Source: a virus. Taken from it: 64,000 nt of DNA. The translations under genes and the position numbers were made by a program. The notes under the pieces are model-generated. The model was given only the letters and a program-made list of their open reading frames with translations. It was not told where the DNA came from and searched no databases. Within the stretch, counting starts at the first letter, position 1. Each line of letters opens with the position of its first letter. The stretch lies in UHGV virus genome UHGV-1351569. One strand, written 5' to 3'. This document shows positions 21,327 to 32,020 of the stretch, in pieces.

Positions 21327-22023
<697 letters not shown>

Positions 22024-22035
22024 TTTCACAAAGTT

Positions 22036-22065
22036 GTTTACATGCTGATGAGGTAGTGATACTAT
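22036..22065 (+). promoter_or_regulatory. early promoter (-35 GTTTAC, -10 GATACTAT inside a GATGAG...CTCATC stem-loop)
   Basis: T4 early-promoter-like -35/-10 pair preceded by TAATTTCACAAAGTT. Confidence 0.6.
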
Positions 22066-22095
22066 TATCTCATCAAAATTAATTAGGAAAATAAA

Positions 22096-22353
22096 ATGAA
22101 AACTTTCAAAGAGTTTGCTACAAAAACTACTATTACTGAATCTTCTCATGGTATGGAAGTAAAGCTTGGAATGGCTTTAGCTGAAGCTGAGCGTCTTTTC
22201 TCTCGTATTAAAGAACTTGCTGCTGCAGTCGATCCTTCATCTTTTAAAGGAGACCAAACGAAAGTTAAAGCACTTTTAGCATTATGCTCCGATGCAGGAG
22301 AAATTGCTAAAAACGGTTCTAAGATGAAGAAACGATTAGAAGATTTAAAATAA
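22096..22353 (+). CDS. small protein with capsid-targeting-like N-terminus (internal-protein-like)
   Basis: 85 aa, starts MKTFKEFATK..., strong RBS AGGAAA; occupies the position of ipI. Confidence 0.55.
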   Translation: MKTFKEFATKTTITESSHGMEVKLGMALAEAERLFSRIKELAAAVDPSSFKGDQTKVKALLALCSDAGEIAKNGSKMKKRLEDLK

Positions 22354-22366
22354 TTTCACAAAGTTA

Positions 22367-22395
22367 TTTACACATGGTTTTAGTAGTGATACTAT
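22367..22395 (+). promoter_or_regulatory. early promoter (repeat of the 22036 module)
   Basis: TAATTTCACAAAGTTATTTACA ... GTGATACTAT within a GGTA...TACC inverted repeat. Confidence 0.6.
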
Positions 22396-22429
22396 TACCC
22401 TATCAAAACAAAACCAAATGGAAATCAAA

Positions 22430-22738
22430 ATGAAAACTTACCAAGAATTTATCAATGAAGCAGCTGCGCCAAAGACATTTGTTATTAATACTCAAGCGAG
22501 TCTTGATGACGAGTACGCAGAGGCAATTTTGAAGTCACTTGCTAAGAACGGTGTTGAAGTGTCTGCATCGGACTTTAAGAAAGGGGCTTCCGAGATGTTT
22601 ATTTCTATAACTAAAGGATCTAAAGCTAAAATTAAATCATCATTCGGAGTTGCTCGTGCCGATCAAATCGACAACCATGACTTTAAACAAACTGGTGCTA
22701 AACGACAGAACACAATTGCATCACGTGGAATAAAATAG
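22430..22738 (+). CDS. internal-protein-like protein with capsid targeting sequence
   Basis: begins MKTYQEFINEA (consensus capsid-targeting sequence of T4 internal proteins, prohead protease site after ...xE). Confidence 0.6.
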   Translation: MKTYQEFINEAAAPKTFVINTQASLDDEYAEAILKSLAKNGVEVSASDFKKGASEMFISITKGSKAKIKSSFGVARADQIDNHDFKQTGAKRQNTIASRGIK

Positions 22739-22750
22739 TTTTATAAAATT

Positions 22751-22780
22751 GTTTACTTTTAGATGGGGTAGTGATACTAT
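22751..22780 (+). promoter_or_regulatory. early promoter (third copy of the module)
   Basis: GTTTAC ... GTGATACTAT inside a GGGTA...TACCC inverted repeat. Confidence 0.6.
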
Positions 22781-22808
22781 TACCCTATCAACTACTGAGG
22801 AGAATAAA

Positions 22809-22994
22809 ATGAAACGTTGTGAATTAATTCGAAATGTTGCTATTGCAATTTCTGCTTCTGCTTTTAGTTTTTCAATGTTTGTTGGATTTATATGCGGATT
22901 ATTAACTACAGCAGAAAACGTTTTTTCACTTGTAGTAGCATTTTTAATTGGTTTAATTGCTATCGTTATGGATAAAATTTCTAAAGGTGAATAG
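22809..22994 (+). CDS. small predicted membrane protein
   Basis: 61 aa, RBS GAGGAG, hydrophobic segments. Confidence 0.5.
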   Translation: MKRCELIRNVAIAISASAFSFSMFVGFICGLLTTAENVFSLVVAFLIGLIAIVMDKISKGE

Positions 22995-24276: not shown

Positions 24277-24349
24277 TGGGAATTAGCCAAGTTGGTAAGG
24301 CACTGGATTTTGATTCCAGGATGCAAAGGTTCGAGTCCTTTATTCCCAG
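24277..24349 (+). tRNA. tRNA-Gln (anticodon UUG), CCA not encoded
   Basis: cloverleaf read by hand: acceptor TGGGAAT/ATTCCCA, anticodon stem CTGGA/TCCAG, loop TTTTGAT. Confidence 0.8.
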
Positions 24350-24350
24350 C

Positions 24351-24437
24351 GCGAGAATGGTCAAATTGGTAAAGGCACAGCACTTAAAATGCTGCGGAAT
24401 GATTTCCTTGTGGGTTCGAGTCCCACTTCTCGCACCA
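24351..24437 (+). tRNA. tRNA-Leu (anticodon UAA), type II long variable arm
   Basis: acceptor GCGAGAA/TTCTCGC, anticodon loop CTTAAAA, encoded CCA. Confidence 0.8.
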
Positions 24438-24442
24438 AATTT

Positions 24443-24516
<74 letters not shown>

Positions 24517-24526
24517 ATTTAATTTA

Positions 24527-24603
24527 CTCCGTGTAGCTCAGTTTGGTAGAGCACCTCACTTGTAATGAGGATGTCGGCGGTTCGATTCCGTCAATCAGCA
24601 CCA
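24527..24603 (+). tRNA. tRNA-like gene with Thr anticodon UGU but non-complementary acceptor stem (probable hybrid / pseudo-tRNA)
   Basis: D, anticodon and T arms fold normally; 5' acceptor strand CTCCGTG cannot pair with 3' strand AATCAGC (4 of 7 mismatches). Confidence 0.55.
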
Positions 24604-24604
24604 A

Positions 24605-24676
24605 GGCCCTGTAGCTGGAAGGTTCAAGCAAGCGACTCATAATCGCCAGATGGTGGTTCAATTCCACCCAGGGCCA
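24605..24676 (+). tRNA. tRNA-Ile (anticodon CAU, lysidine type), CCA not encoded
   Basis: acceptor GGCCCTG/CAGGGCC, T arm GGTGG-TTCAATT-CCACC, anticodon loop CTCATAA. Confidence 0.7.
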
Positions 24677-24717
24677 TATTTTGGGAACATAAATACTCTT
24701 AGAAATAGGAGATATTT

Positions 24718-25383
24718 ATGTTCTATTACACTTATAAAATAACAAATAAAATTAATAATAAAATTTATATTGGTGTGCATTCTACCGAAAATTTAGATGA
24801 TGGATATATGGGTTCTGGTAAATTATTAAAAAGAGCCCAAGATAAATATGGTATAGAAAATTTTTCTAAAGAAATATTAGAGTATTTTGATGATAAAGAA
24901 TCTATGCTTGAAGCCGAGAAAAATATTGTTACAGAAGAGTTTTTAAATAGACCAGATGTGTATAATTTAAAACTTGGCGGTGAAGGTGGATGGGACCATA
25001 TAAATATTCCTGGGATGCTAAACCAGAAGAAAGACGCTAGTTTAAAAGGAGCTAAATCGTTTAAGTCACGTTTTAAAAATGATATTTTACTTCAAGAAAA
25101 ATATCGTAAACATGGTTCAAATGTATTTAAACAGCTTTGGGATAATCCTAAGTATAGAGAGAAATTTTTAAATACTAAATCTTTCTTGGGTAAGACCCAT
25201 ACTCTTGAAACTATTAATAAAATGAAAGAATCTCACGCCAGAAATAAACACCAACAGGGCGAAAAGAATTCCCAATTTGGTATGATGTGGATTCATTCAT
25301 TAGATGAAAAAGTTTCTAAACGTATTAAGAAAACTGACCCAATTCCAGAAGGATGGTTTAAAGGTCGAAAAATGAAATTTTAA
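24718..25383 (+). CDS. segB: GIY-YIG homing endonuclease SegB
   Basis: 221 aa; N-terminal YKITNKINNKIYIGVHS...GYMGSG GIY-YIG motif; located inside the tRNA cluster as T4 segB. Confidence 0.85.
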   Translation: MFYYTYKITNKINNKIYIGVHSTENLDDGYMGSGKLLKRAQDKYGIENFSKEILEYFDDKESMLEAEKNIVTEEFLNRPDVYNLKLGGEGGWDHINIPGMLNQKKDASLKGAKSFKSRFKNDILLQEKYRKHGSNVFKQLWDNPKYREKFLNTKSFLGKTHTLETINKMKESHARNKHQQGEKNSQFGMMWIHSLDEKVSKRIKKTDPIPEGWFKGRKMKF

Positions 25384-25386
25384 TTA

Positions 25387-25463
<77 letters not shown>

Positions 25464-25809: not shown

Positions 25810-25817
25810 TATAAATA
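25810..25817 (+). promoter_or_regulatory. late promoter TATAAATA
   Basis: TATAAATA about 40 nt upstream of the 25858 ORF. Confidence 0.5.
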
Positions 25818-25857: not shown

Positions 25858-26331
25858 ATGAAATCATATGCTCAATTTTTAAATGAAGCGGTGATAAATG
25901 AAGCATCTAGCACTGAAATTCAAGCTGTCGCGAAAGCAGCCATTGCAGCGGGTAAATATTCCTATAAAGATGCTTCTGACGAATCACGATTCCAATTTGC
26001 TCGTGATATGAAAGCCGAAGGATTTACAGGGAATGCAGTTAGTATGGCTTGGAAAAGTTTAGTTGCTACTGGAGCTGCTTTTGCAAAGGCTTCAGGTAAA
26101 CCTGCTCCTAAAGCAGATCCTAAAGTCACACAAGAGAAAAATATTGTTAAAGGAATTATCTCCAAATATGAAGCTATCCTTAAAGAGCTTTTAGTAATCA
26201 AAACTGAAGGCCAAAAACTGGCTCGTGCTTATAGTTTCAAAGATAACCCACATGCTCACTCTCTTGAGTATGTTGAAGACATCCAAAAAATTATTAAAGA
26301 CCGCATTTGGTCTGCTAAACAAATCAAATAA
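25858..26331 (+). CDS. hypothetical protein with capsid-targeting-like N-terminus MKSYAQFLNEA
   Basis: 157-aa Ala/Lys-rich protein; N-terminus resembles internal-protein targeting sequence; late promoter upstream. Confidence 0.5.
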   Translation: MKSYAQFLNEAVINEASSTEIQAVAKAAIAAGKYSYKDASDESRFQFARDMKAEGFTGNAVSMAWKSLVATGAAFAKASGKPAPKADPKVTQEKNIVKGIISKYEAILKELLVIKTEGQKLARAYSFKDNPHAHSLEYVEDIQKIIKDRIWSAKQIK

Positions 26332-30234: not shown

Positions 30235-30765
<531 letters not shown>

Positions 30766-30853: not shown

Positions 30854-31327
30854 ATGAAAACATATCAAGAATTTATTACTGAAGCAGCTATTAATTCTCA
30901 AATTATTGCTGAATCTTTTACTGATCTTTTGAAATTTAAAAAAGGTCAAAAAATCACTGCTGTATTGGATGATGGTACAGAAGTTGAGATGGATGTACAG
31001 GGATATAATTATGCAGTAGATGGAAAACTGTATAATAAATCTCATGCTAAATTTGATTCATTTGACGACTTTGTTAATACAGTTGAAGATGAAAAAACTC
31101 GTCGATCCATTGCAACTGGTGATGCTAAGGTTCTTATGGCACATGGTCATGAACGCATTCGCGCTAAACAGAATAAAATGGGTGAAGATAATTTTGCATT
31201 AGTTGGTTATCAATCTGGTAAACAAACTTATGGCTATCAACGTACTGCTACAGTGTATAATAAAAATGGTAAAATCGCTTTCGTGAATAGCAAAGGCTCT
31301 ATTCAGTACGTCAAATCATTCAAATAA
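30854..31327 (+). CDS. internal-protein-like protein with capsid targeting sequence (ipIII position)
   Basis: 157 aa, begins MKTYQEFITEAA; adjacent to e where T4 has ipIII. Confidence 0.6.
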   Translation: MKTYQEFITEAAINSQIIAESFTDLLKFKKGQKITAVLDDGTEVEMDVQGYNYAVDGKLYNKSHAKFDSFDDFVNTVEDEKTRRSIATGDAKVLMAHGHERIRAKQNKMGEDNFALVGYQSGKQTYGYQRTATVYNKNGKIAFVNSKGSIQYVKSFK

Positions 31328-31480
31328 GCAAATAAGAAATATGGGAACAAGCTGGACCTCATGATTCTATGAGGGATTCCCGCCAACCTGTAATAAGGTC
31401 GAGCCTAAGTGCGGTAATGGGTAAATACAGAAATGGACAATTCATGCGCCATGGAATGGCCCAAATTTAGAGAGAATAAA

Positions 31481-32020
31481 ATGAGAACATTTTTAACTGG
31501 TCCTTATCTATCCCTGATGAATGCTTTTACACACCATTCTGATGCTAGAGTAGAAGAAATTTGTAAAAACGATTATATCCCACCATTTGAAGACTTACTA
31601 AAACAATATTGCACACTTCGACTAGATGGTGGACGTCAATCTGGTAAATCAACTGCTGTGACTAACTTTGCTGCTAATTGGCTGTATGATGGTGGAACAG
31701 TTATTGTTCTTTCTAATACTTCAGCTTACGCTAAAATTTCTGCGGGCCACATTAAAAAAGAATTTTCTCGTTATTCTGGCGATGATATTCGATTCCGCTT
31801 ATTTACCGATTCTGTCCGTAGTTTTATCGGTAATAAAGGAAGCAAGTTCAGAGGTTTATCGCTTTCGCGTATTTTGTATATAATTGATGAGCCCGTTAAA
31901 TCTCCTGATATGGATAAAATTTACAATATTCATATTGAAACTGTGCACCACTGTTGCAATAGTAAATGCTGCATTGGTGGTATTACTCGTCCACAGTTTT
32001 TCATAATCGGAATGCAATGA
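31481..32020 (+). CDS. predicted P-loop NTPase
   Basis: Walker A GGRQSGKST and Walker B-like ILYIIDE; start at RBS-supported ATG (ORF extends to 31433). Confidence 0.55.
   Translation: MRTFLTGPYLSLMNAFTHHSDARVEEICKNDYIPPFEDLLKQYCTLRLDGGRQSGKSTAVTNFAANWLYDGGTVIVLSNTSAYAKISAGHIKKEFSRYSGDDIRFRLFTDSVRSFIGNKGSKFRGLSLSRILYIIDEPVKSPDMDKIYNIHIETVHHCCNSKCCIGGITRPQFFIIGMQ

Follow-up and report, generated by a model that had tools for sequence, protein, structure and literature searches.

The internal proteins Ip5 and Ip7 at the ipI locus of a Tequatrovirus genome

In a 64,000-nucleotide stretch of the virus genome UHGV-1351569 (the window, numbered from its first letter), two adjacent small open reading frames (ORFs) at 22096–22353 (ORF1) and 22430–22738 (ORF2) begin with closely similar residues. 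What are these two proteins, and what might they do for the phage? A reading made from the letters alone (the sequence-only reading) had taken the N-termini as capsid-targeting sequences and proposed novel injected internal proteins that may counter host defences. Both ORFs exist, and they encode Ip5 and Ip7. The interpretation as injected internal proteins (IPs) is supported by these identities, by the matching of both proteins to PHROG families of internal head proteins, and by their position in the ipI locus of T4. The expectation of novel members was not borne out, since Ip5 and Ip7 received their names in the 1990s and are present in hundreds of sequenced phages; both are already known, and both are already included in a published anti-restriction screen. 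The best explanation of the data is that Ip5 and Ip7 are exchangeable ipI-locus cassettes of a Tequatrovirus, and that their products are probably packaged, cleaved, injected and directed against a host defence.

Identity and genomic setting of ip5 and ip7

The ip5 gene (22096–22353, + strand, start MKTFKEFATKTTITESS) encodes a protein of 85 residues that is 100% identical to the named Ip5 proteins of RB15 (GenBank Z35082), T6 (UniRef Q38630_BPT6), Bas37 (Bas37_0261) and Bas38 (Bas38_0261). The Ip5 of T-even phages is no different from ORF1, with 98.8% identity for T2 ip5. This exact sequence constitutes the UniRef cluster "Ip5, n=43 Tequatrovirus, Q38630_BPT6" and was found on 205 contigs, and a tblastn search detected Ip5 in 497 phage records. 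It matches the internal head protein family phrog_3499 over its entire length (E-value 1.2e-49, residues 1–85 of 85). In the GenBank record of Bas37, this protein is labelled "internal head protein ipI".

The ip7 gene (22430–22738, + strand, start MKTYQEFINEAAAPK) encodes 102 residues and shares 95% identity with ip7 from Enterobacter phage CC31; it also matches "internal head protein 7" of phages ATK47 and mogra. The match to the internal head protein family phrog_2667 covers residues 1–102 (E-value 2.3e-42). Ip7 is present in 284 phage records (tblastn), and the exact sequence of ORF2 was found on only 9 contigs of a large collection. The Ip7 proteins of CC31, ATK47 and VR25 have the same length and the same capsid targeting sequence (CTS) as ORF2, with the closest copies 91–97% identical, and homologues in Mosigvirus, Gaprivervirus and Jiaodavirus share 47–69% identity with it. 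A program-made list of ORFs placed the start of ip7 at an earlier ATG, 22418 (MEIKMKTY...). The start at 22430 was accepted because it brings the ribosome-binding site and first codons into register with those of ip5, and because all homologues begin there. The two genes share a 31-nucleotide repeat over the ribosome-binding site and first codons, GGAAA(A/T)(T/C)AAAATGAAAACTT..., with 84% DNA identity.

The window is part of a Tequatrovirus (T4-like) genome with about 96% identity to IME537, AR1 and others, and has no exact counterpart in the phage collection. It runs in reverse orientation relative to the T4 map. Locally, the genes are arranged as gene 3, gene 1 (dNMP kinase), 57A, 57B, ip5, ip7, trna.4, trna.3, trna.2, tRNAs and segB; in the T4 map, the gene between 57B and trna.4 is ipI. 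Over positions 21400–22130, from 57A and 57B through the promoter to codon 12 of ipI, identity to T4 is 97%, and the 57B stretch is collinear with T4 74575–73844 (97%). Similarity stops after ipI codon 12 and restarts at 22733, the base just past the T4 ipI stop codon, from where 22733–22998 matches T4 73589–73326 at 93%. As similarity to T4 is broken only between codon 12 and the stop codon, what has been exchanged is the ipI body, in whose place stand the body of ip5, an intergenic cassette and ip7.

This intergenic cassette is one of three copies of a direct repeat (family D1). Copy 1 (22008–22078, + strand, 71 nucleotides) is almost the same as the sequence upstream of ipI in T4. Copy 2 (22338–22408, + strand) is 82% identical to copy 1, and copy 3 (22723–22793, + strand), 73% identical to copy 1, lies before trna.4 where collinearity with T4 restarts. 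A promoter scan found in the cassette a promoter of T4 early type, with TTTACA, a 17-nucleotide spacer and a TG-extended TACTAT (22037–22065 in copy 1; hexamers at 22367–22395 in copy 2), and its -10 element is bracketed by an imperfect inverted repeat, GATGAGGTA/TATCTCATC. The cassettes begin in the final codons of the preceding gene: copy 1 in 57B (...DDLK, stop) and copy 2 in ip5 (...EDLK, stop). With cassettes repeated at the gene ends, each ip gene is a module that has conserved sequence on either side. This layout agrees with the arrangement of IP loci credited by later papers to Repoila et al. 1994 and subsequently generalised as PeSL elements (PMC4122927), and the repeated cassette around each ip gene fits the 1994 shuffling model for the ipI locus.

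The contents of the locus in related phages vary in the same modular manner. Ip5 also follows 57B immediately, behind the same promoter, in GiZh, teqsoen, VEc74, Bas37 and Bas38, whereas the gene that follows it differs: Ip7 in the window, a 77-residue IP in GiZh, teqsoen and Bas37, none in Bas38 (Ip5 only), and three more IPs in VEc74 (Ip5, a 90-residue IP, Ip7 and a 74-residue IP). HMD-9 carries the 90-residue IP and Ip7. The genomic slot of Ip7 differs too, being the 57B locus in the window and in mogra, and the denV-vs.8 locus (the other IP locus) in VR25. The window is therefore one further permutation of known cassettes, with Ip5-Ip7 in the ipI locus and Ip4 in the other.

Both flanks of the ipI locus are conserved. 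On the left, 57B (21568–22023, + strand) matches the anti-CBASS nuclease family Acb1 (Pfam PF23474, E-value 2.6e-60); the ipI locus thus adjoins a second counter-defence gene, which is still labelled "RNA ligase" or "hypothetical" in many phage records. On the right, a small membrane protein of 61 residues (22809–22994, + strand) matches phrog_1692 (E-value 6e-35) and is annotated as trna.4 in GiZh and T4.

Capsid targeting sequence and predicted processing

The N-terminal pattern M-K-[TS]-[YF]-x-[EDQ]-F was seen three times in the window, plus in Ip7 when read from its internal start, as against an expectation of 0.001 calculated from the window's own amino-acid composition over 137 ATG-initiated ORFs of at least 60 residues. 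Four ORFs of the CTS type begin at 22096, 22430, 25858 and 30854. Given this expectation, and as the similarity between ip5 and ip7 extends to the DNA level, their common N-terminus is not due to chance. In the 10-residue CTS of T4 IPIII, mutagenesis has shown that head incorporation requires residues 4 and 7, while cutting by the prohead protease depends on residues 8 and 10 (PMC9026906). Ip7 retains all four critical positions (Y4, F7, I8 and E10), and its CTS, MKTYQEFINE/A (the slash marks the cleavage site), equals that of T4 IPII and IPIII, MKTYQEFIAE/A, at 9 of 10 positions. Ip5 has F4 and F7, as in T4 IPI, and no Glu at position 10; it contains I-T-E at residues 13–15.

Sites of the gp21 type (L/I-x-E followed by a small residue) are found, as motif matches only, at I8-N9-E10/A in Ip7 and I13-T14-E15/S in Ip5. 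The predicted propeptide of Ip7 is accordingly MKTYQEFINE, encoded by codons 1–10 (22430–22459), and that of Ip5 is MKTFKEFATKTTITE, encoded by codons 1–15 (22096–22140). The propeptide of Ip5, MKTFKEFATKTTITE/S, is of the same long type as that of T4 IPI, MKTFKEFTSTTTPVSTITE/A, in which I-T-E occupies residues 17–19. A diverged Ip5 homologue has a short, 10-residue propeptide, MQTYQTFITE/SSHG, and this variant places the predicted Ip5 cut between E15 and S16. The sequence-only reading noted that the targeting sequence of the T4 internal proteins is removed after a Glu; in Ip7 this Glu would be residue 10, but in Ip5 the predicted site lies at residue 15, comparable to ITE19/A of T4 IPI, so that the reporter fusion of the first 10–12 residues proposed there would omit the predicted processing site of Ip5.

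The CTS is kept in Ip7 homologues of four genera, even where overall identity to ORF2 is 47–69%. Moreover, near-identical Ip7 bodies carry alternative CTSs (MKTYQEF, MKTFKEF or MKSYQEF), a pattern that recombination inside the CTS would produce. From the conserved CTS we infer that Ip5 and Ip7 are packaged, processed and injected.

After removal of the propeptides, mature Ip5 (Ip5*) would have 70 residues (7.5 kDa) and a predicted isoelectric point (pI) of 9.2, and mature Ip7 would have 92 residues (9.8 kDa) and a predicted pI of 9.65, compared to 9.0–9.65 for the mature forms of T4 IPI, IPII and IPIII. AlphaFold2 modelled Ip5 as a two-helix hairpin with moderate confidence (predicted local distance difference test, pLDDT, 71). 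The Ip7 model, also of moderate confidence (pLDDT 65), consists of a small alpha/beta core (residues 15–82) and a disordered basic tail (residues 83–102).

The tail comprises the C-terminal 20 residues of Ip7, HDFKQTGAKRQNTIASRGIK (residues 83–102; 22675–22735), which were modelled with pLDDT below 50. It is among the most conserved parts of the protein, being mostly invariant in close homologues, and an R-x-N-T motif is retained in four genera (alignments A1 and A3). The conserved tail may be a candidate binding peptide for DNA or a host target.

Probable function and alternative explanations

By analogy with T4 IPI, IPII and IPIII, the N-terminal CTS would bind Ip5 and Ip7 to the prohead scaffolding core, and the prohead protease gp21 would then cut the propeptide off after Glu (ITE15/S in Ip5, INE10/A in Ip7). 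The gene for this protease, gene 21, is expected outside the window from the T4 map, and its presence was assumed as that of a core gene of the group (PMC9026906). The small basic mature proteins, in up to a few hundred copies (about 360 of each IP per head in T4; PMC9026906), would remain in the head with the DNA and be injected together with it. In the cell, each would most likely disarm a single, specific first-line defence directed at DNA, and the likeliest target would be an individual type IV (modification-dependent) restriction enzyme acting on DNA with glucosyl-hydroxymethylcytosine or hydroxymethylcytosine (hmC).

The anti-restriction role proposed here derives from the four family members with known targets. 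T4 Ip1 (IPI) inhibits the GmrSD of strain CT596, Ip2 inhibits GmrSD-ECOR21 and Ip3 inhibits GmrSD-ECOR17; these are very different GmrSD systems, and there is no cross-protection (PMC12373910). IPIII expressed in the cell is active without its CTS (PMC9391042). The fourth member, Bas37_0260, is a CTS-bearing protein of the ipI locus that inhibits McrBC (bioRxiv 10.1101/2025.11.20.689424, a 2025 HIDEN-SEQ preprint). As all four block type IV restriction, a type IV enzyme is the likeliest kind of target for Ip5 and Ip7, and the target is most likely some uncharacterised enzyme of this type. The anti-defence role envisaged by the sequence-only reading is the accepted hypothesis for the class (PMC12373910; PMC3012670), and the co-expression with restriction systems that it suggested as a check has been done in part, for ip4 to ip10 against GmrSD.

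IPI and Ip5 have in common the locus, the promoter, an MKTFKEF-type long propeptide ending in ITE, and a small basic mature form. Their mature bodies are unrelated, however; the structure of mature IPI consists of two beta-sheets flanked by helices (PMC3012670), while for Ip5 a helical hairpin is predicted. The mature regions of T4 IPII and IPIII are likewise unrelated to Ip7, and their genes are in T4's other IP locus, between e and denV.

In the ipI locus of Bas37 (KarlGJung, MZ501089), an Ip5 identical to ORF1 is followed by bas37_0260, a CTS-bearing protein of 77 residues that thus occupies the second slot, where Ip7 is located in the window. It is neither Ip5 nor Ip7: it is the 77-residue neighbour of Ip5 in Bas37, and its body is unrelated to Ip7, since the same 77-residue family from GiZh has no blastp match to Ip7. 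None of the window ORFs beginning with a CTS belongs to this family. The naming of IPs is inconsistent across records, and bas37_0260 (MZ501089, 3054–3287, - strand) is "ipVI" in GiZh (2431–2664), "putative internal head protein" in teqsoen and "hypothetical protein" in Bas37.

No Pfam family was found for Ip5 or Ip7, and word-indexed homologue searches recovered only close relatives. A search of the PDB by sequence gave only noise, with no match to mature IPI, and an Ip7 profile run against 1.84 billion representative proteins retrieved only its own family, in three clusters of T4-like phage proteins, with no bacterial or distant relatives of Ip7. Some weak resemblances were set aside: matches of Ip7 residues 33–65 to DARPins in the PDB sequence search, in which no stretch passed by itself; one weak multi-stretch match of the Ip7 profile (E-value 3.8e-07) to a short lysine-rich segment, which is probably compositional; and, in the fold search, a weak resemblance of Ip7 to generic ACT/ferredoxin-like domains and a resemblance of Ip5 to any helical hairpin, neither of which was used to assign a function. 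The function of Ip5 and Ip7 was therefore argued from precedent.

Several results weigh against this proposal. Mature Ip5 and Ip7 have no sequence similarity to IPI, IPII or IPIII by blastp; in an all-against-all comparison of the mature regions with IPI, IPII, IPIII and GiZh ipVI, no pair that included Ip5 or Ip7 had an E-value below 0.3, and the IP bodies compared are mutually unrelated in sequence. A Foldseek search of the PDB with the Ip5 and Ip7 models found nothing at an E-value of 1e-3 or better and no match to the fold of mature IPI. The literature searched, in which the results were dominated by inositol-phosphate papers, named no target for Ip5 or Ip7 and contained no virion proteomics of them and no direct evidence for their presence in virions, their processing or their injection. 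There is no late-promoter box (TATAAATA) directly upstream of ip5 or ip7. In the published screen, ip4 to ip10 gave no reproducible inhibition of GmrSD variants from 15 groups (PMC12373910, Suppl. Fig. 9), and an apparent interaction between ip7 and CLS_011 failed to repeat (PMC12373910). T2 and T6 are still restricted by GmrSD-ECOR17 and GmrSD-ECOR21 (PMC12373910), although they carry Ip5. Finally, a transposon screen of Bas37 on K-12 reported only bas37_0260 as needed, and not the adjacent ip5, bas37_0261 (bioRxiv 10.1101/2025.11.20.689424).

The likeliest alternative is that Ip5 and Ip7 are packaged and injected but act on a target other than type IV restriction, for instance an hmC-DNA glycosylase, a system that works independently of a nuclease, or one that senses the entry of DNA. 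The negative screens of ip4 to ip10 and the lack of a reported K-12 type IV phenotype for Bas37 ip5 would both be expected, and the adjacent Acb1 counters a system that is not restriction. Furthermore, the IP bodies are unrelated in sequence and fold, so that what defines the class is how its members are delivered, not what they target. The screens sampled only representatives of 15 groups of a very large GmrSD diversity, however; the four IPs whose targets are known all inhibit type IV enzymes, and PMC12373910 makes the case that the two IP loci are given over to countering GmrSD variants. We consider it rather unlikely that the target lies outside type IV restriction, and equally so that Ip5, Ip7 or both inhibit a first-line defence other than GmrSD and McrBC (an hmC-DNA glycosylase, a DNA-entry barrier or an undescribed system). 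If this were true, the IP delivery route would extend beyond anti-restriction.

Ip5 and Ip7 might instead be packaged mainly for a structural or physical role, as counter-ions for the DNA or helpers in assembly of the prohead core, with no specific host target. The basic pI values predicted for the mature forms (9.2–9.65) and the conserved basic tail of Ip7, disordered in the model, would suit such a role, as would the high copy number of the T4 IPs and the observations that loss of IPIII slows head assembly (PMC9026906) and that internal-protein lysines contact DNA phosphates (PMC3012670). A generic role of this kind leaves unexplained the rapid turnover of the IPs, their unrelated folds and their presence/absence polymorphism among near-identical phages. 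Moreover, T4 can grow on laboratory strains without any of its three IPs (PMC9026906), and a specific host target has been found for every IP studied in depth. A mainly structural role is unlikely.

It is very improbable that Ip5 and Ip7 are unpackaged, early cytoplasmic accessory proteins whose common 5' end is only a recombination module of promoter, ribosome-binding site and first codons, because, although each gene has its own early-type promoter with no late box directly upstream and the conserved block runs without a break from the promoter into the first 7–12 codons, T4 ipI has a nearly identical upstream region that also lacks a late box and yet IPI is packaged in the copy number given above, and because the critical CTS positions and the downstream I/L-x-E are kept across four genera in which DNA and protein have otherwise diverged, which indicates selection on the peptide.

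Other internal protein genes in the window and implications

The second IP locus of the window holds a single ip gene, Ip4 (IpIV; 30854–31327, + strand), which encodes 157 residues starting with MKTYQEFITE/AA and matches Pfam DUF7412 (E-value 4e-95) and phrog_3155 ("internal virion protein"). It lies directly downstream of the lysozyme gene e (30271–30765), where T4 has ipIII, and the promoter region upstream of it is the same. Just after it, about where T4 has ipII and denV, an ORF of 195 residues (31433–32020, + strand) contains a Walker-A-like sequence, GGRQSGKST; its PHROG matches are phrog_1488 (unknown function) and a weak one to part of the terminase large-subunit family phrog_2 (E-value 5e-6).

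A further ORF (25858–26331, + strand, 157 residues) is a candidate internal protein gene that has escaped annotation, at what would be a third locus. It starts with MKSYAQFLNE/AVINE/A, with Y4, F7, L8 and E10 in place, and its predicted mature form is of 16 kDa with a pI of 9.5; its PHROG match is phrog_2280 ("unknown function"). Upstream of the ORF come a terminator-like hairpin (GCCCCAACCGAAAGGTTGGGGCTTTTT) and, at 25810–25817, a T4 late-promoter box, TATAAATA; the ORF is situated between the tRNA-Arg/rnaC region and an e.8-like ORF, where T4 has no gene. Its homologues also have a CTS-like start, MKSYAEFLTE in Mosigvirus and MKFKEFLAE in Jiaodavirus, the latter differing in its C-terminal half; the hairpin, too, is conserved. 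The protein is a "hypothetical protein" in all of the 25 phage records sampled out of 512, and in every named cluster member listed.

The tRNA cluster downstream of the ipI locus (24277–25463) is small, with five genes (Gln, Leu, Gly, a CAU-anticodon Met/Ile, and Arg); T4 has eight, and GiZh and Bas37 have at least ten. A SegB homing endonuclease of the GIY-YIG type (24718–25383) lies between the CAU tRNA and tRNA-Arg.

The targets of Ip5 and Ip7 are a real question, one that is already recognised and under active study. For the prediction of host range in phage therapy, the set of IPs carried by a phage is worth annotating. Because IPs enter the cell together with the DNA and ahead of all phage gene expression, a phage has no other protection from defences that act on its entering DNA.

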